In this document: piece by piece, positions 179-61,432 of the stretch
Position numbering within the stretch: the first letter of the stretch is position 1
How the letters are laid out: each line of letters opens with the position of its first letter
Assembly (NCBI GenBank): GCA_963775955.1
Contig: CAVZKT010000002.1
Location: 292,944 to 356,943, forward strand
Origin: Candidatus Moraniibacteriota bacterium
GTDB taxonomy: Bacteria; Patescibacteriota; Minisyncoccia; Moranbacterales; UBA2206
DNA: 64,000 nt
Direction of reading: 5' to 3'
Translations under genes and position numbers: made by a program
The notes under the pieces: model-generated
Seen by the model: only the letters and a program-made list of their open reading frames with translations
The model's database searches: none
What the model was told of the DNA's origin: nothing

Positions 179-1282
179 ATGGCACATATAGCCAGCATCG
201 AAACAATTCCAATAGTTGTAAATATTTTGAAAATACTTTTTATCGCGCTGATCGCGTTCATGGTGGCGTTTTTGGCGACGCCGCTTCTGACAAACTTTTT
301 ATACAAGAAAAAGCTGGGCATAAAAATAAAAGAAAAATCGGTTGACGGCAAGCCGCTGCAATATGTGAACGTGCTTCATAAAGACAAAAGCGGAACGCCG
401 ACCATGGGCGGGATTCTGGTGTGGGCGACAGTGTTGATCTTGATTTTTGCCTCGCATTATCTTTTTCCGGTTATTGCCAGATGGACGAATACGAATTTTA
501 TCGCCCGGCTGGATTTTTTGAGCCGGGCGCAAACCTGGCTGCCCCTTTTCGCGCTGGTTACGGCTGGGGTTCTCGGGCTATGCGATGACTGGATGAGCGT
601 CCGCCGCGTCGGATCAAACAAGGGAGGCGGAATGCGTTTTGCCAAGCGTTTCGGCTGGCTGATTATTATTGCCGTTTTAGGCGCGTATTGGTTTTATTTC
701 AAGCTGGACTGGCATTCTATCCATGTTCCGGCAGTGGGCGCGTTTGATATCGGCTGGTGGTATATCCCGCTTTTTATTTTTGTTATTCTTTTTACCGCCA
801 TTTCTTCCAATGAAACCGATGGGCTGGACGGGCTTAACGGAGGAATACTTTTGACGGCCTTTGCCTCTTTCGCAATCATCGCGTTTGCGCAGAATAAAAT
901 GGATCTAGCCGCTTTTTGCGCGGCCGTTGCGGGGGCGCTGCTGGCCTTTCTCTGGTTCAATATTTATCCAGCGCGGTTTTTTATGGGAGACACGGGAGCG
1001 ATGTCGCTCGGCACGACCTTGGGCGTAGTGGCCCTGCTCACTAATTCCGTCCTGGTTTTGTTCATTATTGTTTTCATTTATTTTCTGGAATCAGGCAGCG
1101 TGGTTATTCAGCTCGCAAGCAAGAAGTTTTTGCATCGTAAAGTATTTTTAGCCGCGCCACTGCACCACCATTTTGAGGCCAAAGGCTGGCCGGAAACCAA
1201 AGTCACGATGCGCGCCTGGATTTTCACTTTCGTCACCGCCGGCATCGGCCTCATCATCGGGATTTTGGGGATGGGAAAGTAA
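179..1282 (+). CDS. mraY: phospho-N-acetylmuramoyl-pentapeptide transferase
   Basis: ORF 128..1282; polytopic membrane protein with MraY motifs NETDGLDGL, FMGDTGAMSLG, APLHHHFE; ATG at 179 taken as start. Confidence 0.9.
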   Translation: MAHIASIETIPIVVNILKILFIALIAFMVAFLATPLLTNFLYKKKLGIKIKEKSVDGKPLQYVNVLHKDKSGTPTMGGILVWATVLILIFASHYLFPVIARWTNTNFIARLDFLSRAQTWLPLFALVTAGVLGLCDDWMSVRRVGSNKGGGMRFAKRFGWLIIIAVLGAYWFYFKLDWHSIHVPAVGAFDIGWWYIPLFIFVILFTAISSNETDGLDGLNGGILLTAFASFAIIAFAQNKMDLAAFCAAVAGALLAFLWFNIYPARFFMGDTGAMSLGTTLGVVALLTNSVLVLFIIVFIYFLESGSVVIQLASKKFLHRKVFLAAPLHHHFEAKGWPETKVTMRAWIFTFVTAGIGLIIGILGMGK

Positions 1283-1603: not shown

Positions 1604-3043
1604 ATGACCGTAAATAAAGAAAAGATAAGGGAATATATAAACGATCAAATTTCCCAAGCGGATTTTCGCGCGAGGGCGTATGTTTTTGACGCGCAAAATA
1701 ATAAGCGTCCCAATAGAAATATTTTCATCAGAATACAGTCGCATCTCGATCAATTTCTCGCCGGAAATAAATCTTATCGCTGGGTTGCGCTTACCGGCTT
1801 GCGCGGAGCGGGCAAAACGACCATTATGTACCAGCTATATCACGCCAAAAAAAATATTGACGGGTATTTTTTAATTCTTTCAGTAGATGAAATAACGCAA
1901 ACCCTGGAAAGCAATATCAATGAGGTAATAAATGTTTTTGAGGAAATTATCGGCCGTCCGATTACAAATTTGGACAAACCCCTGTTTTTATTTTTAGATG
2001 AGGTGCAATATGATGAAAAATGGGGAGTGACTTTAAAAACTGTCTATGATCGGGCAAATAATGCCTTTATATTTTCAACCGGATCAGCGGCCGCGCTTAT
2101 AAACAGCAATTCTGACATTGCTCGTCGCGCCCTGTATGAAAAAATATACCCGCTTTCATTTACTGAATTTATTAAGATTAAGCGGGATAAATATGAAATA
2201 AAGGGATTATCGCAGGAATTAAGAGAAATTATTTTTGGCGGACATGGCGCCGCGGAAGTGTTTAGCGCGCTGAAAAAACAAGAGCAGAAAATAAATGAAT
2301 ATTATCACGGCATCAGCCGCCTGGATTTTGAAAATTATCTTTATTACGGATCACTGCCATTTATGATTGCGTTGGAAAACGAAGCGTTGGTGTATGATCA
2401 AATAAGTAAATCGCTTGAGCGGGTAATCAACAAGGATATCCCTCAGATGCGCGGGCTTTCTTCTGAAATTATCAATAGAATTCCGGCAATTTTATATTCA
2501 GTGGCGGATATGGATGCCTTGAATTTTACAACTTTAGCGGAAAAATTTGGCATTTCCCGCCCAAAGATATCTGAAATTTTTTCGGTGCTTGAGCAAACTG
2601 AAATTTTGCACCGCATATATCCGCACGGATCTCATTTTAAACAGGTGACGCAAAAGCCGTCAAAATATCTTTTTTCTTCGCCGGCATTTCGCGCGATGTA
2701 TTATAAAACCATCGGTAATATTATTACGGATCAAAACGCGCGAGGAAAGCTACTGGAAGATTTGGCTGGAATGTATCTCTATCGTTTATGCGATAAAAAA
2801 CCAACATTTTCCTTGACTTATGACAGTGCGAAAGGAGGAGCCGATTTTATAGTGAGCGCGGGGGAAAATAAAATAGTGGTTGAAATCGGTGTGAATAAAA
2901 AAGAATATAAGCAAGTGATGCAAACGGCGGAAAAAGTAAAAGCGGTTTACAGTATTATTATTTCAGAAGGCGCTAATGTTTTAGAGTATAATCCGGAGGC
3001 TAACGCGCTAAAAATACCGCTAAAATATTTTCTTTTGATGTAA
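1604..3043 (+). CDS. AAA+ ATPase (COG1373/DUF4143-like ATP-binding protein)
   Basis: Walker A GLRGAGKTT, Walker B LFLDEVQ; 479 aa. Confidence 0.7.
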   Translation: MTVNKEKIREYINDQISQADFRARAYVFDAQNNKRPNRNIFIRIQSHLDQFLAGNKSYRWVALTGLRGAGKTTIMYQLYHAKKNIDGYFLILSVDEITQTLESNINEVINVFEEIIGRPITNLDKPLFLFLDEVQYDEKWGVTLKTVYDRANNAFIFSTGSAAALINSNSDIARRALYEKIYPLSFTEFIKIKRDKYEIKGLSQELREIIFGGHGAAEVFSALKKQEQKINEYYHGISRLDFENYLYYGSLPFMIALENEALVYDQISKSLERVINKDIPQMRGLSSEIINRIPAILYSVADMDALNFTTLAEKFGISRPKISEIFSVLEQTEILHRIYPHGSHFKQVTQKPSKYLFSSPAFRAMYYKTIGNIITDQNARGKLLEDLAGMYLYRLCDKKPTFSLTYDSAKGGADFIVSAGENKIVVEIGVNKKEYKQVMQTAEKVKAVYSIIISEGANVLEYNPEANALKIPLKYFLLM

Positions 3044-3045
3044 TT

Positions 3046-4158
3046 ATGAAAATTTATAATTTTATGAATCTAAAAAAGATCCAGGACGCGGATGTGGAAA
3101 ATAAAAAAGTTTTGTTGAGGATTGATTTTAATGTGGCATTGAAAAATCAAAACGCCAAGGAGAAATACAAAATATTTTCCAGCAAAGAAACGATAGATTA
3201 TATTTTATCCCAAAAGGGGGCGAAACTGGCCTTGGTGGGGCATCTCGGACGGCCGACAGCGCTCAAAAATTGCCTGATTTCCGGAGAAACATTGTCTCAT
3301 CGCGCGGCGGAGCAAATTGACCCGCAGTTTTCCTTAAAACAATTGGCCGACGATGTCGAGCGCATTTTGGAAATTAAAGTTAAATTTGTGCCGGATTGCG
3401 TCGGTGAAAAAGTGAAAGAATCCATTGAAAATCAAAAACCGGGCGAAGTCTTGCTCTTGGAGAATGTTCGCTTTTATTGCAACGATGAAAAAAATGATCC
3501 AGAATTTTCCGAAAGGCTGGCGGAAAATTTTGATATTTTTATCAACGACGCTTTTAGCGTCTGCCATAGGAATCAGGCATCAGTGACCGGACTGGCGAAA
3601 AATTTACCAAGCTACGCCGGTTTTTGGCTGCAAAAAGAAATTGAAAATCTGGACAAGGTGAAAAATAATCCGGAACATCCGGCGGTGGCGATCATCGGCG
3701 GAGCCAAAATTGAAACCAAGCTTCCTTTGATAAAAAAACTTGAGGACGAATACGACCATATTTTAGTGGGCGGCAAAATTGCCAATGAAGCGCTGGATCA
3801 GGGATTGAAATTTAGCGAAAAAGTGCTTTTCCCCGTTGACTTTTTAGGCGACCGGCTGGACATCGGACCAGAGACAATAGAAAAGTTTAAAAACATCATA
3901 TCCAGCGCCAAAACTATCGTGTGGAACGGCCCGATGGGAAAATTTGAGGAAAAGCCGTATGACATGGGAACAAATAAAATTCTTGAAGCCGTCGTGAGGA
4001 GTGGAGCTTTCATTTTAATGGGAGGCGGAGAATCAGTGGAAATCTTGGAAGGACAAAAGGCGATGGATAAAATTTCCTTCGTTTCCACCGGCGGCGGCGC
4101 CATGCTGGAATATTTAAGCGGCAACATCCTGCCGGGCATAGAAGCTCTAAAAACATGA
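3046..4158 (+). CDS. pgk: phosphoglycerate kinase
   Basis: LLRIDFNV, GHLGRP, LLENVRF, NDAFSVCHR, GGAKIETKL, WNGPMGKFE, STGGGAMLEYL. Confidence 0.95.
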   Translation: MKIYNFMNLKKIQDADVENKKVLLRIDFNVALKNQNAKEKYKIFSSKETIDYILSQKGAKLALVGHLGRPTALKNCLISGETLSHRAAEQIDPQFSLKQLADDVERILEIKVKFVPDCVGEKVKESIENQKPGEVLLLENVRFYCNDEKNDPEFSERLAENFDIFINDAFSVCHRNQASVTGLAKNLPSYAGFWLQKEIENLDKVKNNPEHPAVAIIGGAKIETKLPLIKKLEDEYDHILVGGKIANEALDQGLKFSEKVLFPVDFLGDRLDIGPETIEKFKNIISSAKTIVWNGPMGKFEEKPYDMGTNKILEAVVRSGAFILMGGGESVEILEGQKAMDKISFVSTGGGAMLEYLSGNILPGIEALKT

Positions 4159-12640: not shown

Positions 12641-12700
12641 ATTGATAAAGTCCGTGAAATATGGTAATATTTGAACAATAATAAGTAATTTTTAAAATTC

Positions 12701-12835
12701 ACCCTGTTAAATAAATTTTGCTTTGGCAAAATTAAGATTTGAAAAAAATAGGGGAATTAAAAGATGAATTGTAACTATTAATAAAAATAAGTTGTTTCTA
12801 TAAAAAGTATAGACTCAAATCTTATTTAACAGGGT
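12701..12835 (+). repeat. palindromic GTTAAAT-class element (ACCCTGTTAAATAA ... TTATTTAACAGGGT)
   Basis: 14-bp perfect terminal inverted repeat at 12701-12714 / 12822-12835; inner hairpins AATTTTGCtttgGCAAAATT and TCTATAaaaagTATAGA; ends 2 nt before the ATG at 12838. Confidence 0.7.
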
Positions 12836-12837
12836 AA

Positions 12838-13134
12838 ATGGAACAGCAAACACAACCGCAGCCGCCGGCCGGCCAAACTCCGCCAAGCGCTCCGGCTAAA
12901 AAATCCAATGTTTGGGTTTGGATTTTGGGCGGGTGCCTGATAATTATTCTCATAATTGGAATTGTAATGGCAGGACTTGCCTGGTGGGGAGCCAGAAAAG
13001 TCAAAAACGTCATTAAAGAGAACCAGCCGAAACTGGAAGAAATGCAGAAGGGAACTGAAGATATGCAAAAAGCCGCCGAAGAGTGGCAGAAGCAAATGGA
13101 AAAATTGAAGGACCAGGTGCCGGCAGCCGAGTAG
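12838..13134 (+). CDS. small single-pass membrane protein (hypothetical)
   Basis: 98-aa ORF; Pro/Gln-rich N-terminus, one hydrophobic helix, charged coiled C-terminus. Confidence 0.6.
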   Translation: MEQQTQPQPPAGQTPPSAPAKKSNVWVWILGGCLIIILIIGIVMAGLAWWGARKVKNVIKENQPKLEEMQKGTEDMQKAAEEWQKQMEKLKDQVPAAE

Positions 13135-19817: not shown

Positions 19818-19961
19818 CTCAGCCGGACAAAATTTCCAAACAAATTCTGCGTTCGCGAGCTAAAAGTTCACGGCTGCTTCCGCCAGGGGCGGAATCAAGG
19901 AACTTTTTTAACGCTCGCTCGCTTGAATTTTGGGGAAATTTTGTAGGCTGAAGGTTTTTTT
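19818..19961 (+). other. long imperfect hairpin (about 55-nt arms) ending in a T7 run
   Basis: Left arm CTCAGCCGGACAAAATTTCC...GCGAGCTAAAAGTTC pairs with GAACTTTTTTAACGCTCGC...GGAAATTTTGTAGGCTGAAG; apex TTCCGCCaggGGCGGAA; TTTTTTT at 19955-19961. Confidence 0.6.
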
Positions 19962-22034: not shown

Positions 22035-22035
22035 A

Positions 22036-22138
22036 CCCTGTTAGAGATTTTTCTGACCTGACTGGGTTAAAATAAAATTATTAATAAATTTTCGGGTATT
22101 ATTTTTAAAATAATAAACTTGTAAAATCTCTAACAGGG
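22036..22138 (+). mobile_element. 103-bp palindromic MITE-like element (CCCTGTTAGAGATTTT ... AAAATCTCTAACAGGG) splitting the porB start codon
   Basis: 16-bp perfect TIR; 4-bp direct repeat TGAA at 22032-22035 and 22139-22142; old ATG at 22031 overlaps the porA stop (ATGA); new GTG at 22138. Confidence 0.75.
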
Positions 22139-23043
22139 TGAACAAAAAATTAACTGAAAAATTAGCTCCAGGGCATTCTACCTGCGCCGGCTGCGGGATC
22201 CCGGCAATATTCCGGACAGTTTTAGGCGCGACAGATGAACCGGTGATTGTGGTGAACGCTACCGGCTGTGGAGAGGTGACCACGACCCTTTACCCTTATA
22301 CTGCCTGGAAAGTGCCTTATATCCACAATGCTTTTGAAAACGCGGCCGCCACGGCTTCCGGAGTGGATGCGGCGCAAAAAGTATTGGAAAGAAAAGGGAA
22401 GATAAGAAAAAAAGCCAAAATTGTTGTTTTTGGCGGTGACGGGGGAACTTATGACATCGGACTGCAAAGTTTGTCCGGGGCGCTTGAACGGGGCCATGAT
22501 TTTCTCTACGTCTGCTATGACAATCAGGGCTATATGAACACTGGCGGCCAAAGGTCAGGGGCTACACCCTATGGAGCATCAACGGAAACAACCCCGGCGG
22601 GAAAAAGTGATATCGGAAATGAAATGATTCGCAAGGACATCATTCAAATTGTGGGAGGACATGGATTGAAATATATTGCCCAAGCGAATGTGGCGTTTAT
22701 TGATGATCTGGCGTTGAAGGCCAAGAAAGCGCTGGCCATGGACGGACCGCGATTTTTGCTGGTGCTTCAGCCTTGCACCAATCTTTGGAAATATCCGACG
22801 TCGCAATATGTCAATATCGGAAAGCTGGCTACTGAAACTAATTTCTGGCCGCTCTATGAAATCGAAGACGGGAATTACGTAATTAATTACGTACCTAAAA
22901 ATCCGAAGCCGGTGGAAGAATTTTTGAAAGGACAGGGGAGATTTAAACATTTATTTAAACCCGAAAATAAAGAAGTGATTGAAAAAATCCAGGGAATGGT
23001 GGATAAAAATTGGGCGGAGCTTAAGAAAGTATCTGGCATGTAG
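22138..23043 (+). CDS. porB: pyruvate:ferredoxin oxidoreductase beta subunit (TPP-binding)
   Basis: GHSTCAGCG, GGDGGTYDIG; begins at the GTG formed by the element end G plus the duplicated TGAA. Confidence 0.9.
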   Translation: MNKKLTEKLAPGHSTCAGCGIPAIFRTVLGATDEPVIVVNATGCGEVTTTLYPYTAWKVPYIHNAFENAAATASGVDAAQKVLERKGKIRKKAKIVVFGGDGGTYDIGLQSLSGALERGHDFLYVCYDNQGYMNTGGQRSGATPYGASTETTPAGKSDIGNEMIRKDIIQIVGGHGLKYIAQANVAFIDDLALKAKKALAMDGPRFLLVLQPCTNLWKYPTSQYVNIGKLATETNFWPLYEIEDGNYVINYVPKNPKPVEEFLKGQGRFKHLFKPENKEVIEKIQGMVDKNWAELKKVSGM

Positions 23044-23068: not shown

Positions 23069-23254
23069 AGCCATCTGCCGGGATTGAACCGGCGGCCTGC
23101 GCGTGGAGTTTATCCGCCTTTGGCGGGAGTGCGCCGCCCCGCCAATATTTGAGCCCACGGTCGGGATCGAACCGACGACCTATGCGTTACGAATGCATTG
23201 CTCTACCAGCTAAGCTACGTGGGCGGGTAAATCTACCAACTGAGCTAAGATGGC
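23069..23254 (-). ncRNA. split tRNA-like gene (outer) hosting tRNA-Thr
   Basis: 5' GCCATCT-TA-GCTC-AGTTGGTAGA (23254 downwards) and 3' GCCGG-TTCAATC-CCGGC-AGATGGC-T (to 23069); the acceptor strands are perfectly complementary (7/7) but about 150 nt apart; no canonical anticodon arm found. Confidence 0.5.
23152..23224 (-). tRNA. tRNA-Thr (anticodon CGU)
   Basis: Manual cloverleaf: GCCCACG/CGTGGGC acceptor, GCTT..GAGC D-arm, anticodon loop TTCGTAA, T-arm GTCGG-TTCGATC-CCGAC; no encoded CCA. Confidence 0.85.
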
Positions 23255-23267
23255 AAATACAATAAGC

Positions 23268-23296
23268 AGTATAATTAAAAACCATTAAAAAATCAA
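23268..23296 (-). promoter_or_regulatory. promoter of the nested-tRNA locus
   Basis: Minus strand TTGATT (23296-23291), 17-nt spacer, TATACT (23273-23268); 13 nt upstream of the outer 5' end. Confidence 0.55.
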
Positions 23297-24729: not shown

Positions 24730-25838
24730 ATGAAAGAGCTTCAAGAAAAAATTCAAAAACTAAAAGATAAACACGCTCTTTTGAGCGACTATCTTTGACT
24801 TGGCCGGGAAACAAAAAAGAATAGCCGAGTTGGAAAATAAATCGAACCAACCTGATTTTTGGAGCGACTCGCAAGGAGCTTCCGGGAGTATGCAAGAACT
24901 GGAAGAATTGCGCGGCACGATAAAAATGCTAAGCGACATTGAAACAGACTTGGGCGAAATCAAGGAATTGTCGGAAATTATTTCCGAAGCGGAAGTCGGC
25001 GCGGAAAAAGAGAAAGCGGATCTCGAAAACAAGCTTTCTGAAATTGAAGAAAAAATAAACCAGCTGGAATTCAAAACTCTCCTTGGCGGGGAATATGACC
25101 GCAACGGTGCGATCATGAGCATTCATAGCGGAGCGGGAGGAGTGGACGCGCAGGACTGGGCGGAGATGCTGCTGCGCATGTATCTTCGATTTTGTGAAAA
25201 AAATAAATTCAAAGCAAAAATTATTGATGAATCCCGCGGATCTGAAGCGGGGATTAAGAACGCGACTCTGGAAATATCCGGGCCGTATGCTTACGGTAAT
25301 TTGAAAAGCGAAGGCGGTGTGCACCGTTTGGTGCGGCTTTCGCCGTTCAATGCCGATAATTTGCGCCAGACATCGTTCGCGCTGGTGGAGGTAATGCCGG
25401 TCATCGAAGATATAAAAGAAGTTGTAATCAATCCGGCGGATATCCGCGTGGATGTTTATCGCTCATCCGGCGCCGGCGGGCAAAGCGTGAATACGACTGA
25501 CAGCGCGGTGCGCATTACGCATGTTCCCACGGGAATAGTGGTGACTTGCCAGAATGAACGCAGCCAAATGCAGAATAAAGAGCAGGCGATGAAAATTTTG
25601 CGCGCCAAAATCCACCAAAAATATCTGGAAGAAAAAGAGAAAGAAAAAGCCAGGTCTGCGCGGAGTTGCGGTTTCGGCCGAATGGGGGAGCCAGATCCGT
25701 TCCTATGTCCTGCATCCGTATAAATTGGTAAAAGACCACCGGACAAAGCATGAAACAACTGATACTGAAGGAGTTCTGGAAGGCAATATTGGTGATTTTA
25801 TTGAAGCATATTTGCGCTTTACCCGAATTAAAAAATAG
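24730..25838 (+). CDS. prfB: peptide chain release factor 2 (programmed +1 frameshift; a second, unexpected +1 shift near 25650)
   Basis: ATG 24730...TAT CTT TGA C at 24790-24799, then frame +1 (ORF 24800..); GGQ motif [19 protein letters not shown]; the C-terminal [21 protein letters not shown] is in a third frame, ending at TAG 25836-25838. Confidence 0.85.
24793..24799 (+). promoter_or_regulatory. RF2 autoregulatory +1 frameshift site CTT TGA C
   Basis: Matches the canonical slippery CUU-UGA-C context. Confidence 0.9.
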
Positions 25839-27737: not shown

Positions 27738-27766
27738 TTGATTTTATACCGGTTTTACGGTAAGAT
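27738..27766 (+). promoter_or_regulatory. promoter of the nested-tRNA locus
   Basis: TTGATT 27738-27743, 17-nt spacer, TAAGAT 27761-27766; 21 nt upstream of the outer 5' end. Confidence 0.55.
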
Positions 27767-27787: not shown

Positions 27788-27993
27788 TGGGGAGTAGCCA
27801 AGCGGCCCCGCACCAAAGCGAAGTTTGGTGTGGGGTAAATAAGGCACGAGGTGGCGCCTGTCCCGCCTAAAGTTCCGAGATCGTCTAACGGTAGGACGGC
27901 AGGTTCTGGTCCTGCTAATCTTGGTTCGAATCCAAGTCTCGGAACTTTATGCGGGAGTCCATGCATGCGGGGGTTCGAATCCCTCCTCCCCAA
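27788..27993 (+). ncRNA. split tRNA-Gln-like gene (outer) hosting tRNA-Gln(CUG)
   Basis: 5' TGGGGAG-TA-GCC-AAGCGG and 3' GGGGG-TTCGAAT-CCCTC-CTCCCCA-A; acceptor 7/7 with U1-A72; 12-bp hairpin CCCCGCACCAAA/TTTGGTGTGGGG in the D-loop; no canonical anticodon arm found. Confidence 0.5.
27874..27944 (+). tRNA. tRNA-Gln (anticodon CUG)
   Basis: Manual cloverleaf: TCCGAGA/TCTCGGA acceptor (U1-A72), D-arm GTCT..GGAC, anticodon arm GCAGG-TTCTGGT-CCTGC, T-arm CTTGG-TTCGAAT-CCAAG. Confidence 0.85.
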
Positions 27994-47386: not shown

Positions 47387-48670
47387 TTACCCTTGATTTT
47401 TAGAAGAAATTTCCTGTTGGATAACTTCCAGCGCTTTGTCCAGCTGCGGGTCGCGGTTGTTGTCAAAATCTTCCTGGGTTAAATCCACTTCAATATTGGG
47501 AGTTATGCCCTCATCCATTATGTAGTCGCCATTAGGCGTCATCCATTTGTCCACAGTGATTTTTACGCTGGAATTTCCCGGCAAATCAATAAGTTCCTGG
47601 ACAGAGCCTTTGCCGAATGATTTCTTGCCGATGAGCTGGACGGCGCGGTTGTCCCGCAGGGCTCCGGCCAAAATTTCCGAGGCGCTGGCGCTTCCCTCAT
47701 TAATCAGGACTACCACCGGCAAAGAGCTAAGCCTGTCCCCGCCCGATGTATATAAGTTGTCTTTTTTGCCGGTGTTGTCTTCCTCGCTGACAACCAGCTC
47801 GCCCTTGGGGATCATCCGACTGGCTACGCTTACGGCCTTATCCAAAAATCCGCCCGGATTGTTGCGCAAATCTAAAACAATTCCTTTGGCGCTTTGGGAA
47901 ATTATTTGATTTGCAGCTGCGTCAAACTCCTTGGCAGTATCGTCGCCGAATTTGGTTATTTTCAGATAGGCGATGCCATCAGGCTTGAATTCCAGCTCCA
48001 CGCTTTTTATGGAAATAGTGTCACGGACAATGGAAATTTCCCTGACTCCATCCTCGCCCAGGCGCAAAACTGTCAATTTAACCTCTGTTCCTTTTTTTCC
48101 GCGGATCAGATCCACTGCTTCATCAATGGTGGTGTCAGCGGTTGTTTTGTCGCCGACTTTGAGGATTTTATCGCCGGCCCGCAAACCCGCTTTGGCGGCC
48201 GGAGAATCGGCCAGCGGAGCAATTACGGTCAAGATATTATCTTTGATTCCCAGTTCGGCGCCAATTCCTTCAAAGCTGCCTTCCAAATCTTGGGAAAAAG
48301 ATTTTGTTTCCGCCGGATCAAAAAAAGTTGAATACGGGTCATTGGTGGCGCGCAGCATTCCTCTGATGGCGCCATAAACCAATTTTTGGGCGTCCAGGGA
48401 ATTTTTATCCACATATTTTTCTTTTAGCAGATCCCAAACTTTCCAGAAAAGCGAAAAATCAACCGAATTTTGCGGAGAATTTTTATTGGTAATTTGCGTT
48501 TGAGCGAGCGGGAAGGACCGATTATCAGCGGGGGAATTTTTTCCTCTGGAATAACCCAGCCAAAAACTCCCGACTAAGAGAAAAACAAAAAAGAAAATAA
48601 ACAAATACTTATGCAGTAATTTGCGATTATTATCCAAAGACCGTGTCTGTTTTAGAGTTTCTTCGTCCAC
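47387..48670 (-). CDS. ctpA: S41 C-terminal processing peptidase (PDZ-containing)
   Basis: PDZ (AGLRAGDKILKVG) plus S41 core (GSASASEI..GKKSFGKGSVQ); start taken as GTG 48670-48668, regenerated by the element insertion (the track TTG start at 48688 lies inside the element). Confidence 0.85.
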   Translation of the reverse strand: MDEETLKQTRSLDNNRKLLHKYLFIFFFVFLLVGSFWLGYSRGKNSPADNRSFPLAQTQITNKNSPQNSVDFSLFWKVWDLLKEKYVDKNSLDAQKLVYGAIRGMLRATNDPYSTFFDPAETKSFSQDLEGSFEGIGAELGIKDNILTVIAPLADSPAAKAGLRAGDKILKVGDKTTADTTIDEAVDLIRGKKGTEVKLTVLRLGEDGVREISIVRDTISIKSVELEFKPDGIAYLKITKFGDDTAKEFDAAANQIISQSAKGIVLDLRNNPGGFLDKAVSVASRMIPKGELVVSEEDNTGKKDNLYTSGGDRLSSLPVVVLINEGSASASEILAGALRDNRAVQLIGKKSFGKGSVQELIDLPGNSSVKITVDKWMTPNGDYIMDEGITPNIEVDLTQEDFDNNRDPQLDKALEVIQQEISSKNQG

Positions 48671-48769
48671 CCCGTTAGAGTTTTCCAAAATTACAGGAAA
48701 TAATATTGGAATTGTAAAAAAATAATTAAGCGTAATCCCGTTTCAAATTTAATAAAAACTCTAACGGGG
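48670..48769 (-). mobile_element. 100-bp palindromic MITE-like element (CCCCGTTAGAGTTTT ... AAAACTCTAACGGGG) splitting the ctpA start codon
   Basis: 15-bp perfect TIR; 4-bp direct repeat (minus strand TGGA; plus strand TCCA at 48666-48669 and 48770-48773); old ATG at 48774-48772 directly follows the upstream TAG. Confidence 0.75.
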
Positions 48770-48774
48770 TCCAT

Positions 48775-50849: not shown

Positions 50850-50878
50850 ATTTTACTTTTATTTGACAATGATGTCAA
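50850..50878 (-). promoter_or_regulatory. consensus-like promoter for the LCP gene
   Basis: Minus strand TTGACA (50878-50873), 17-nt spacer, TAAAAT (50855-50850); the -35 is part of the palindrome TTGACAtcatTGTCAA and abuts the element's duplicated TTGA. Confidence 0.6.
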
Positions 50879-50989
50879 CCCCGTTAGAAGTTTTGGAAAG
50901 TTCTTTTTAATATCTAAAATATAAAGGTGAAGCCGCTTCGCTTAAATGCTTTTCTTAGGCATTATCTTTAAAATGAACTTCTAACGGGG
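50879..50989 (-). mobile_element. 111-bp palindromic MITE-like element (CCCCGTTAGAAGTT ... AACTTCTAACGGGG)
   Basis: 14-bp perfect TIR; 4-bp direct repeat (minus strand TTGA; plus strand TCAA at 50875-50878 and 50990-50993); one copy supplies the TGA stop of the GT4 gene, the other the -35 TTGACA. Confidence 0.7.
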
Positions 50990-52141
50990 TCAACTAAGAG
51001 AGTTAAAAATACAAATCACACCCCAGGCCGCTTTTTCCCAGGAAAATTTTTGCGCTTGCGATTGTCCCTTTTGTGCCAAAATCCCGCCTAAATTAGGATT
51101 GTCAAATATTTTCTGGATTTTACCGGCCAGATTCTCGGGGCTTTTTGGCTCGAAAAAAAGCGCGCTTTCACCGGCTATTTCCCGGTGCGGAGGAATATCC
51201 GAAGCAATAACCGGCGTGCCGGCCGCCATGGCTTCCAGAATCGGAATGCCGAAGCCTTCATAGAGCGAGGGAAAACAAAAAACACGCGCCCCCTTCATAA
51301 CGGCGGCCTTGTCATTCTCATCGATGAACCCCGGAAAAAAAACATTATTTTTCAAATTAAGTTTGGAAACAGTTTCGTCAATGCGCGGGTCAAAATTATG
51401 TCCCCGGCCGCCGGCAATGACAAGTTTCGCGTCAATTTTATGTTTTATTTTTGCGTAAGCTTCAATAAGGATTGGAATATTTTTTCTGGGCTGGAGCGTG
51501 CCGACGTATAAAATATATTCGTCCGGCAAAGCATATTTCTTTTTTACCGAGAGAATTTTTTCCGGCGAAACATCCTGGCGCAGAAAATCTTCTGAAACAG
51601 CGTTGTGGATCCAGGCGACTTTATCTCGGCTTGCCGGATAATATTTTTTTAATTCCTCAGCGGTAAACCGGGAAACCCCAATAATTTTATCCGCTCTTTT
51701 GAGAGACATCGGAATTAAAATTTTCAGGAAAAACAAGTCAGAAAACTTAATAAACTGCGAATAGACTTTAAAAGAAATATCGTGGATAATCGTTGCTATT
51801 TTTATGCTTTTTGGCACAAAAAACGGCGTGATATATTGAGTGAGGTATATATCCGCCGGATTTTTTCTTAAATATCGTGGCAACGTCCAAATATTCCATC
51901 CGAATTTGTTCCGCAGCAGCCTGGCCGCCGCAAGCGGAATAATTTCAAAATTGATTTTATTTTCAATTTTTAATTTTACTGCAATACTCTGTAGTATTGC
52001 AGTATCTGCTGTGTCGGTGAATAATAAATATTTATTTCGACTGTCGATTTTGGCGAGATTTTTAACCAAATTAAAAAACACCGCCTCATCACCGGTTCTC
52101 TTTTTTCCGATTAATCGAATGTCAATGCCGATTTTTACCAC
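50990..52141 (-). CDS. GT4-family glycosyltransferase
   Basis: C-terminal EGFGIPILEAMAAGTPVIAS motif; 383 aa. Confidence 0.8.
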   Translation of the reverse strand: MVKIGIDIRLIGKKRTGDEAVFFNLVKNLAKIDSRNKYLLFTDTADTAILQSIAVKLKIENKINFEIIPLAAARLLRNKFGWNIWTLPRYLRKNPADIYLTQYITPFFVPKSIKIATIIHDISFKVYSQFIKFSDLFFLKILIPMSLKRADKIIGVSRFTAEELKKYYPASRDKVAWIHNAVSEDFLRQDVSPEKILSVKKKYALPDEYILYVGTLQPRKNIPILIEAYAKIKHKIDAKLVIAGGRGHNFDPRIDETVSKLNLKNNVFFPGFIDENDKAAVMKGARVFCFPSLYEGFGIPILEAMAAGTPVIASDIPPHREIAGESALFFEPKSPENLAGKIQKIFDNPNLGGILAQKGQSQAQKFSWEKAAWGVICIFNSLS

Positions 52142-60957: not shown

Positions 60958-60967
60958 ATTTTATGAA

Positions 60968-61070
60968 CCCCGTTAGAGTTTTTACAAAGCTGACTGGGTA
61001 AAATAAATAAGTAATATATTTTTCAAGTTTTATTATTTAAAGTAATAAGCTTGTAAAAACTCTAACGGGG
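60968..61070 (+). mobile_element. 103-bp palindromic MITE-like element (CCCCGTTAGAGTTTTTACAA ... TTGTAAAAACTCTAACGGGG) splitting a start codon
   Basis: 20-bp perfect TIR; 4-bp direct repeat TGAA at 60964-60967 and 61071-61074; shares the internal CTGACTGGGT(T)AAAATAAA with the porB copy. Confidence 0.75.
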
Positions 61071-61432
61071 TGAACAGCAATAAAACAATAGTCATTTTTA
61101 CGGTTATTTTTTTTCTGGCTAGCGCTTTGTTTCTGGCCTATACTGAAAATCGGCAATCAAACGAAAATCTGCAAAAAGATTGGTGGGTTTTATCCTTTAA
61201 TGATCCTAAAAGCGAAGATTTGAAATTTACCGTTGAAAATCATAGCAATGAAAACAATTTCCATTGGGAAATTTTAGTTGGCAAAAAAAAGACGCAGGAA
61301 GGTGATATAAAAATATTAAAAGGCTCCTCTTGGACATCCAATGTCCAATTAGATAACTTATCGGGAAAAATCATCATCAGAGTTTCCAGCGGATCAGACA
61401 AAAAAGAGATATATAAGAGTTTTAACAAATAG
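61070..61432 (+). CDS. membrane-anchored hypothetical protein
   Basis: 120-aa ORF; GTG start regenerated by the element; N-terminal TM helix. Confidence 0.55.
   Translation: MNSNKTIVIFTVIFFLASALFLAYTENRQSNENLQKDWWVLSFNDPKSEDLKFTVENHSNENNFHWEILVGKKKTQEGDIKILKGSSWTSNVQLDNLSGKIIIRVSSGSDKKEIYKSFNK

Follow-up and report, generated by a model that had tools for sequence, protein, structure and literature searches.

A tRNA-Thr(CGU) gene nested within a probably inactivated copy of itself in a Moraniibacteriota genome, and related palindromic insertions in tRNA genes of the Candidate Phyla Radiation

In the 64,000-nucleotide (nt) stretch of Candidatus Moraniibacteriota contig CAVZKT010000002.1 analysed here (positions 292,944-356,943, referred to as the window), the minus strand contains at positions 23254-23069 a complete tRNA-Thr(CGU) gene (23224-23152), which is placed between two tRNA-like halves with complementary acceptor strands (7/7). 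The locus is probably a tRNA-Thr(CGU) expression unit, in which the working tRNA resides within an inactivated older copy of the same gene. A second locus (27788-27993, plus strand) consists of a tRNA-Gln(CUG) gene that is broken in the same manner and carries a second tRNA-Gln(CUG). The neighbouring genes and their best protein matches assign the window to Moranbacteria/Parcubacteria, a part of the Candidate Phyla Radiation (CPR). Since bacteria across the CPR show this pattern repeatedly, the two loci are likely to reflect a lineage-wide mode of tRNA gene invasion and replacement and no new kind of split RNA gene. An earlier inspection of this DNA (the sequence-only reading) had placed the outer 5' strand (from 23254), the complete tRNA-Thr(CGU), a 58-nt segment and the 3' end (to 23069) correctly, including the 7/7 acceptor match, and its proposal of a tRNA nested between two halves of a tRNA-like gene was confirmed by alignment to the intact gene of the relative L013.

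Along the minus strand, the locus reads GCCATCT-TA-GCTC-AGTTGGTAGA, TTTACCC, the complete tRNA, 58 GC-rich nt and GCCGG-TTCAATC-CCGGC-AGATGGC-T, which ends at 23069. The nested gene was called by both ARAGORN and the Rfam model RF00005 (23151/2-23224; 64.4 bits, threshold 29 bits). Together with the nested tRNA-Gln(CUG) (59.5 bits), it is one of only two tRNAs called by these programs in the 64-kb window, both of them nested. The outer gene was shown to be, from end to end, a homologue of an ordinary tRNA-Thr(CGU). Its positions 1-23 (23254-23232) comprise the acceptor strand GCCATCT, which pairs 7/7 with 23076-23070, followed by U8 and A9, the D-stem strand GCTC, the D loop AGTTGGTA, G22 and A23, a layout that recurs in L027, L069 and other loci. 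The 3' D-stem strand is then broken after position 23: before the gene continues with position 24, a cassette intervenes in which a complete tRNA stands between a GC-rich arm and its complementary arm. This insertion (23231-23138) consists of TTTACCC, the nested tRNA and CAAATATTGGCGGG. Its 5' end (23231-23222) is composed of TTTA and the arm CCCGCC, whose final three bases are bases 1-3 of the nested tRNA; the nested gene itself (23224-23152) is intact and encodes no CCA; the 3' end (23151-23138) is composed of CAAATATT and the arm GGCGGG and is homologous to the 3' flank of tRNA-Thr in L014 (CAAAGATCTGGCGGG). The outer gene resumes with positions 24-33 (23137-23128; GC, G26, the anticodon-stem strand GCGCA, C32 and U33), which match GAGC-G-GCGCA-TT of the intact L013 gene. 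Bases 34-38 of the anticodon loop (CGTAA) are replaced by a 24-nt unit, CCCGCCAAAGGCGGATAAACTCCA (23127-23104), termed E2, which is made up of a small hairpin, (T/C)CCGCC-AAA-GGCGG(A), and the tail TAAACTCCA. The remainder (23103-23069) represents positions 39-73, with CGCGC, AGGCC, the T arm GCCGG-TTCAATC-CCGGC, the acceptor strand AGATGGC and the discriminator T, and aligns to the L013 gene and its 3' flank.

A promoter-like sequence, TTGATT-17 nt-TATACT, is located 13 nt upstream of the outer 5' end (23296-23268, minus strand; 9/12 matches in a consensus scan), so that the nested tRNA and the outer gene share a single upstream site. The sequence-only reading had pointed to an almost identical promoter at both loci. 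Such a site is indeed present at each of them, the Gln-locus counterpart being TTGATT (27738-27743) with TAAGAT (27761-27766), but it is a consensus match only and carries little statistical weight, with 3 sites found and 1.3 expected.

The site of the Thr locus was compared with the corresponding place in close relatives. In L013 (PorB 90% identical), the region downstream of porB contains an intact tRNA-Thr(CGU), ...TGGTAGAGC-G-GCGCA-TTCGTAA-CGCGC-AGGTC-GCCGG-TTCAATC-CCGGC-CGTGGGC-T, followed by the 3' flank of the window locus, CACTAAATATACTTTATA, at about 95% identity. Because the 3' outer half and the 3' flank thus have an alignable counterpart in a relative, where an intact tRNA-Thr(CGU) occupies this place, the pattern of the Thr locus is more than a chance resemblance. 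This one place was found in four states: a plain gene (L013), a plain gene in reversed orientation with a 3' remnant (L014), a dead 5' part followed by a live gene (L012) and the nested form (window). In L012, the dead 5' two-thirds of a tRNA-Thr with E2 are fused directly upstream of the live tRNA-Thr.

At the Gln locus (all positions on the plus strand), the outer tRNA-Gln(CUG) begins with positions 1-19 (27788-27805) and is interrupted by an empty 34-nt hairpin in its D loop (CCCCGCACCAAAGCGAAGTTTGGTGTGGGG plus TAAA; 27806-27839), after which the 3' strand of the D stem and the sequence up to U32 follow (27840-27852). A second insertion (27853-27956) replaces bases 33-36 of the anticodon loop and consists of GGCGCCTGT-CCCGCC-TAAAGT, the nested tRNA-Gln(CUG) (27874-27945) and CTTTA-T-GCGGGA; positions 37-73 (GT, CCATG, CATGC, T arm, CTCCCCA, A; 27957-27993) complete the outer gene and align with its intact counterparts in L004 and L009. 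The flanks of the anticodon-loop insertion (inverted repeat I8; 20 nt, 95% complementary) pair into a stalk that continues the acceptor stem of the nested tRNA, and this stalk is the most regular one observed, with 5+6 bp prolonging the acceptor stem. Intact tRNA-Gln(CUG) genes of the form TGGGGAGTAGCCAAGCGGTAAGGCACAAGGTTCTGGTCCTTGCAC(G)CGGGGGTTCGAATCCCTCCTCCCCA are located upstream of rluF in L004 and L009, and an intact copy is also present in L094. When the two insertions are removed, the outer sequence aligns end to end with the intact gene; the first 26 and the last 25 aligned bases are identical, and relative to L004 and L009 the sequence lacks exactly four bases, 33-36, the anticodon among them. 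Filled and empty sites are thus both found among close relatives, at the Thr locus (window versus L013) and at the Gln locus (window versus L004 and L009). The closer relatives L001 and L003 have only a second type of tRNA-Gln behind the same promoter. The empty D-loop hairpin (CCCCGCACCAAA...TTTGGTGTGGGG-TAAA) has the arms of a stalk that carries a live tRNA-Thr at 35/36 in L040 (CCCCGCACCATTT...AAATGGTGCGGGG-TAAAC).

What the two loci have in common is the inserted material, namely GC-rich hairpins with arms of the CCCGCC/GGCGGG type. The motif GGCGC-N3-4-CCCGCC-(T)AAAG occurs in the window at these two loci only (0 expected by chance). The earlier observation that the second locus contains a related inserted sequence is supported. 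The further proposal of a dedicated split tRNA-like backbone common to both loci was abandoned: the outer genes are different ordinary tRNAs, tRNA-Thr(CGU) and tRNA-Gln(CUG), that are intact in relatives, each of them has lost its anticodon and hosts a tRNA of its own isoacceptor, and among relatives the outer halves are often missing or decayed. TCCAYGC, previously regarded as shared backbone, corresponds at the Gln locus to positions 37-43 of tRNA-Gln itself and at the Thr locus to the E2 tail joined to positions 39-43 of tRNA-Thr. In the GGYGGCGC alignment, the Thr-locus sequence is derived from the host gene (tRNA-Thr 24-31) and that of the Gln locus is mostly inserted sequence, so that the two may or may not be homologous.

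The outer Thr gene keeps the canonical marks of a tRNA, with the acceptor paired 7/7, the D stem 4/4 (split by the insertion), the T stem 5/5, a TTCRANY T loop, U8, A14 and G18G19. A 7-nt anticodon loop with U33 and an anticodon is not present, and the Rfam tRNA model matches the nested gene alone. Since bases 34-38 are replaced by the 24-nt E2 unit, the outer gene cannot decode. It was nevertheless considered that the insertions could be intron-like and be removed from the RNA, with the hairpins cut by a double-strand nuclease and the nested tRNA freed by RNase P and RNase Z. After ligation, or as a nicked tRNA, the outer gene would then provide another functional tRNA-Thr. In favour of this, host bases are neither lost nor duplicated at several insertions, which are exact (the D loop of the Gln locus, positions 22/23 and 35/36 of the outermost gene in L069, and position 56/57 of the T loop in L110 and L133); 35/36 is also the site of group I introns in Patescibacteria tRNAs (PMC13011429), and CPR 23S rRNA genes carry short insertions at known RNase III-cleaved intervening-sequence sites (PMC11270868). 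However, C34 and G35 are absent at the Thr locus, and on reading the sequence no excision points were found there that would restore a 7-nt loop with U33 and an NGU anticodon; at the Gln locus, no excision yields a 7-nt anticodon loop, as bases 33-36 are missing. There is no group I signal, the inserts are too short, and inspection of the junctions revealed no bulge-helix-bulge that could be drawn. Moreover, an uninterrupted copy is almost always present, which would be unneeded if the outer gene worked. Removal of the insertions from the RNA is therefore regarded as improbable.

Other identities were examined and rejected. For a group I intron, RF00028 gave no hit at the gathering threshold or at E<=10, and only ~45 nt are inserted outside the nested tRNA. 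A bulge-helix-bulge intron was dismissed by inspection, because both arms of each hairpin lie inside the insertion and the insertion start is unpaired with the downstream exon. A transfer-messenger RNA (tmRNA) was not called by ARAGORN, the acceptor contains C3-G70 and not G3-U70, and there is no tag frame. A tRNA-Sec or a class II tRNA with a long variable arm was ruled out by the homology to plain tRNA-Thr and tRNA-Gln.

To follow the E2 unit, an 18-mer common to the window and L012 (AAAGGCGGATAAACTCCA) was used as the search query. It matched 77 metagenome and 46 genome stretches, some of which represent chance matches within genes. The 5' arm of the hairpin, which lies outside the query, was present in 72 matches from public assemblies, corresponding to 51 distinct contexts, and the exact E2 23-mer was found in these 51 contexts. 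The named genomes belong to Moraniibacteriota, Parcubacteria, Microgenomates, Saccharibacteria and Patescibacteria, with a few contigs binned under other phyla; the metagenome-assembled genome UBA12141 contains two copies of the hairpin (L105, L132). The 18-mer is absent from the viral contig collection, and a phage origin of E2 was rejected on this ground. Nor does E2 correspond to a known small ribozyme or riboswitch (twister, pistol, hammerhead, preQ1-like), as there was no Rfam match and the best score was 11 bits for DUF3800-XI (threshold 37.8). The tail of E2 may have a weak, partial complementarity to the 5' end of 16S rRNA. In several loci (L048, L054, L070, L080 and others), E2 is located away from tRNAs in hairpins resembling repetitive extragenic palindromic (REP) sequences, GTCATTCCCGC-E2-GCGGGAATCC. 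In others, it resides in acceptor-stem remnants just upstream of a live gene, such as GGACGAGTGGT-E2-CTGGTCC before tRNA-Leu(CAA) in L083 and comparable remnants before tRNA-Pro (L058) and tRNA-Ser (L065, L105). E2 and related hairpins are also present in dead copies of tRNA-Val, tRNA-Arg and tRNA-Gln(UUG). A tail-less relative of E2, TCCGCCAAAGGCGGA plus TCCGCCTCTGGCGGA, is inserted exactly at 35/36 of the dead tRNA-Gln(UUG) of L034, which suggests that the TAA of E2 represents positions 36-38 of tRNA-Thr itself and that E2 arose in a tRNA-Thr. Other tail-less members of the family are CCTGCCTGCCGGCAGGCAGG, in the dead tRNA-Val of L030, and TCCGCCAGGGGCGGA, in a long palindrome of the window (19830-19950). 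Across the 51 contexts, the best stem closing the unit comprised on average 3.86 bp, compared with 2.65 bp for permuted flanks (top of 200 permutations, 3.02), and stems of at least 5 bp were found in 35% of the contexts (7% expected).

A diverged copy of E2, CCGCCATTTGGCGGGATAAACTCCG, was noted on the minus strand of L013 (492-516) between the por delta and porA genes, so that variants beyond the exact 18-mer exist. In L067, L069 and L074 (context positions ~298-384), ARAGORN calls the dead 3' part together with E2 as an 85-87-nt 'tRNA-Phe(AAA)', the AAA triloop being read as the anticodon; such calls are a likely source of false tRNA annotations in CPR genomes.

The E2 search yielded about two dozen distinct tRNA-Thr(CGU) composites from Moranbacteria, Parcubacteria and Saccharibacteria. 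In agreement with the earlier view that the arrangement is no one-off accident, the same architecture was thus recovered from ~24 distinct loci in many assemblies. Of the 29 contexts examined with ARAGORN (several of them duplicate contigs), 27 contain an intact tRNA-Thr(CGU), the exceptions being a cut contig and L066. The canonical composite is that of L027, in which GCCACCT-TA-GCTC-AGCTGGTAGA is followed by the 5' part of the insertion, CTTGCCCGCC-AGA-GCCTAA, the live tRNA-Thr, the 3' part CAGGCTTAGGCA-GGCGGG, the outer bases GC-A-ATGCT-TT, the unit TCCGCCAAAGGCGGATAAACTCCA and the terminal part AGCAG-AGGTC-CCGAG-TTCGAAT-CTCGG-AGGTGGC-T. The canonical 5' arm is thus C(C/T)TGCCCGCC, followed by a linker and GCCTAA, and the canonical 3' end is CAGGCTTAGGCAGGCGGG. 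Judged from its sequence, the window locus is a slightly deleted version of this form, in which the 5' arm CCCGCC runs three bases into the nested tRNA; its cassette arms are CCCGCC/GGCGGG, and those of relatives extend to 10 bp (CCTGCCCGCC/GGCAGGCGGG).

Several composites have more than one level (L069/L074/L104, L040, L066), and some have three. In L069, two small hairpins are inserted exactly at 22/23 of the outermost tRNA-Thr. Its other insertion, equally exact, is at 35/36 (ATCG ... TAA-ACCGC) and holds a second dead tRNA-Thr with E2, whose D arm in turn holds the live gene. Decay is equally varied. Both outer halves are kept in ~10 of the ~24 distinct Thr loci; L012, L015 and L022 retain only the 5' part (two-thirds of the gene, joined to the live gene on its upstream side), L038, L127, L088, L025 and L047 only the 3' part, and L110, L133 and L082 carry further GC hairpins exactly at 56/57 of the T loop. 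Cassettes and host genes are uncoupled. Some tRNA-Thr sequence types, such as GCCGAGA, GCCGATG and GCCGTCT, belong to the live gene at one locus and to a dead copy at another. In L034 and L071, the nested tRNAs are identical and the arms as well as an upstream tRNA-Gly(CCC) gene near-identical, but the outer genes are quite different, that of L071 lacking G18G19.

Among the non-Thr(CGU) tRNAs of the examined loci, 11 of 47 distinct genes had a same-strand self-match of at least 11 nt within 400 nt, some of these being T-loop matches only. Downstream of the tRNA-Leu(CAA) gene of L083 (1204-1288, minus strand), more partial copies of tRNA-Leu(CAA) were observed, of which one encodes CCA and another has a GC hairpin inserted, and the pile-up of dead copies is hence not confined to tRNA-Thr. 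In L030, a dead tRNA-Val, GCGCGATTGGC(CCTGCCTGCCGGCAGGCAGG)TCATAGGTTCGATTC, with its body replaced by a perfect 20-nt GC palindrome, is located immediately upstream of the live tRNA-Val(CAC) gene (342-414, minus strand).

These data bear on two further explanations. tRNA genes are common integration sites, and the locus differs among close relatives, as would be expected if the outer halves were the att-duplication relic of an integrase-bearing element that was later lost. However, position 23 of one half is directly continued by position 24 of the other (1-23 and 24-73), the complete nested tRNA has a different sequence, and the same architecture recurs with inserts of only 15-110 nt. The att duplication bounded by an integrase that the sequence-only reading had envisaged was not found at the locus: there is no duplicated segment and no integrase among the neighbouring genes (por genes, rubrerythrin, ZIP transporter, prfB, ftsEX, rluF, obg). 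Such an origin is very improbable. Slighter still is the chance of an assembly or sequencing artefact arising from a chimeric join at repeated tRNA sequences. All data are metagenome assemblies, in which tRNA genes act as repeats, but the architecture was present, with lineage-specific differences, in independent JGI, ENA, NCBI and Logan assemblies and on contigs of up to hundreds of kb.

The observations that weigh against a history of insertion and decay concern mainly the preservation of the outer shell and of E2, and they lend some support to a composite that is itself a selected RNA architecture, in which a tRNA-shaped scaffold offers the live tRNA on a processing stalk with E2 in the place of the anticodon. 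In nine complete composites, which have eight different acceptor sequences, the outer stems are nearly fully paired, with counts of 61/63 (acceptor), 35/36 (D stem), 39/45 and, for the T stem, 44/45. T stems are paired 5/5 in 14 of the 16 loci with a canonical T arm, and one stalk-arm variant is compensatory (TCCGC/GCGGA in L135 versus CCCGCC/GGCGGG). The outer acceptor of the window differs from that of L013 by three base pairs, in both strands, which may point to selection acting on the outer fold. E2 does not differ by a single letter between the distant classes Saccharibacteria, Microgenomates and Parcubacteria; this invariance argues against a relic, since a neutral relic would not stay identical. 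It is often co-oriented with adjacent tRNA genes and closed by a stem, and a tRNA-Gly(CCC) neighbour is common to several composites and lineages, which fits old vertical inheritance. In addition, no target-site duplication was seen at the tRNA-loop insertions, and no transposase, integrase or other enzyme tied to the elements was identified. The set of Thr composites was gathered through E2 and is a biased sample, so that the presence of E2 in every composite is true by construction.

Against selection of the whole composite, an outer half is missing or the T arm broken in over half of the distinct Thr loci, the close relatives L013 and L014 have a plain tRNA at the same locus, the outer genes differ sharply between the near-identical cassettes of L034 and L071 (the latter without G18G19), E2 also occurs in REP-like hairpins away from tRNAs, no Rfam family was matched, and the covariation of the outer stems may predate inactivation. 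A selected tRNA-shaped scaffold thus appears rather unlikely, and equally so the role that E2 would have in it as a functional module of pre-tRNA transcripts (a processing signal, a protein-binding site or a small ribozyme). The paired stems, the acceptor change, the invariance of E2 and the shared tRNA-Gly(CCC) neighbour fit selection; they also fit allele exchange and recent spread, and the present sample cannot decide between these, because it was collected through E2. The paired shells may reflect selection at least for dead strands that pair with each other and not with the nested tRNA.

We favour insertion and replacement: more likely than not, GC-rich palindromic elements, some of them with a tRNA, insert into the loops of tRNA genes, after which the nested tRNA is expressed from the old promoter and cut out by RNase P and RNase Z. 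CPR genomes would hold a family of small GC-rich palindromes with arms of the type (T/C)CCGCC-loop-GGCGG(A/G) or CCTGCC...GGCAGG, which would insert at hairpin tips, including the D, anticodon and T loops of tRNA genes, and some of which would themselves be tipped by a tRNA. Where a tRNA gene is killed in this way, the insertion would persist only in the presence of a live copy of that isoacceptor, and repeated rounds would generate nested 'Russian dolls' and decayed fragments. The locus would be transcribed from the promoter of the old gene as one transcript, and RNase P and RNase Z would release the nested tRNA, possibly after a double-strand nuclease has cut the stalk, a step that can be likened to the processing stems of rRNA and the short insertions in CPR 23S genes (PMC11270868). 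CCA would then be added, as none is encoded. The outer pieces would be by-products, whose retained pairing may keep them out of the fold of the nested tRNA. More tentatively, one of two further-reaching alternatives may apply: either the cassettes of stalk and tRNA represent tiny mobile elements of a new class that home into cognate tRNA loops with a replacement tRNA, protein-less or assisted by GIY-YIG proteins, or E2 and its closing stem are a new conserved functional RNA or DNA module of the CPR that is tied to pre-tRNA transcripts, with the outer shell kept as a processing scaffold.

Small GIY-YIG nucleases encoded beside several loci are one candidate for moving the elements. Open reading frames (ORFs) comprising only a GIY-YIG domain (Pfam PF01541) were found in L027 (385-684), L034 (7404-7700, minus strand), L058 (8350-8802, minus strand) and L003 (2341-2589). 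They are located directly upstream of four composite or dead-fragment tRNA loci (L027, L034, L058/L114, L003), and that of L034 lies between the dead 5' half of tRNA-Gln(UUG) and the live gene. The association is based on six distinct loci (seven ORF matches), the proteins are ~80-100 aa long and contain the catalytic domain only, and no GIY-YIG gene is present in the window.

Palindromic sequences also occur outside the tRNA loci. CCGCC-N3-8-GGCGG occurs four times in the window (0.43 expected), and an intergenic long imperfect palindrome (19830-19950) has the mini-hairpin TCCGCCAGGGGCGGA at its tip. In L003, codon 7 of rluF is followed by an in-frame 111-nt palindromic element (3019-3129; arms CCCCCACACCCAC/GTGGGTGCGGGGG), which adds 37 amino acids; the element is flanked by a TTTAYCC direct repeat, and rluF of the window lacks it. 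A separate family resembling miniature inverted-repeat transposable elements (MITEs) is present in the window at 22035-22139, 48669-48770, 50878-50990 and 60967-61071 (perhaps also at 12697-12839). Its arms, ACCCYGTTAGAG...TTTT and AAAA...CTCTAACRGGGT, are 63-95 nt apart, and one copy fills the gap between porA and porB. The rluF element and the MITE-like family show that these genomes carry active small palindromic elements.

Elements of a comparable kind include the double-hairpin elements of Allomyces, the Rickettsia palindromic elements and the REP sequences and bacterial interspersed mosaic elements (BIMEs), with IS1397 inserting into REP loops; the 111-nt rluF element of L003 resembles the Rickettsia elements. 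The GC clusters of yeast mitochondria (PMC4478555) and the hairpin elements of sponge mitochondria (PMC2800124) are likewise short GC-rich hairpins that occupy many unrelated contexts in an AT-rich genome. Shared features further include presence or absence in close relatives, location inside RNA genes or in frame in a protein gene (rluF in L003) and the nesting of elements. The CPR elements differ in their preference for hairpin tips, above all the three tRNA loops, in that some carry a complete tRNA of the isoacceptor they disrupt, in that their tRNA-loop sites show no visible target duplication and in that one 23-nt unit is invariant across CPR classes. The tRNA genes of Patescibacteria with group I introns (PMC13011429) belong to the same phylum and also escape standard tRNA finders, but the CPR composites contain no group I ribozyme, have inserts of ~15-115 nt and are also interrupted in the D and T loops; the window loci lack an anticodon and hence a functional exon pair, with a replacement tRNA in the place of splicing. 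The disrupted tRNAs of archaea, with multiple bulge-helix-bulge introns at non-canonical positions and split or permuted genes (PMC3978253, PMC4033280) resemble the CPR loci in having inserts in the D arm, anticodon loop and T loop and related inserts in different tRNA genes. They differ in that the CPR junctions show no bulge-helix-bulge and that the host is bacterial, the outer gene unrestorable and the guest a whole tRNA.

Some integrative elements insert in a tRNA gene and carry a piece that restores it. They share with the CPR element the compensation by the invader of damage to an essential small gene; the CPR element, however, measures ~100 nt, has no integrase, supplies a whole tRNA while the old gene is dead and leaves no att duplication. 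In phage T4, the free-standing GIY-YIG homing endonuclease SegB is encoded in the tRNA gene cluster (PMC2330249, PMC13096335). At some CPR loci, too, a GIY-YIG gene is placed beside tRNA genes, and tRNA alleles would be replaced or amplified, but the CPR proteins consist of the catalytic domain only (~80-100 aa) and are not encoded in the window.

The literature searched contained no account of nested tRNA genes in the CPR or of E2. The preference for tRNA loops and hairpin tips, the carriage of a whole tRNA into a copy of the same isoacceptor, the multi-level nesting and the invariant 23-nt unit are new. tRNA finders report only the nested gene, so that dead shells, remnants and E2 units go unannotated, and missed or false calls can distort the tRNA counts used to estimate genome completeness. 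As the loci show, tRNA genes turn over rapidly in some of the smallest genomes of bacteria: where a small palindromic insertion has killed a copy, a live one has time and again been provided within it or beside it. The loci raise the questions of how a whole tRNA reaches the hairpin tip inside its own copy and what keeps 23 nt identical across CPR classes.

Among the neighbouring genes, prfB (release factor 2; 24800-25723) has a TTG start and an odd 3' translation, and this ORF may hold the usual programmed +1 frameshift.

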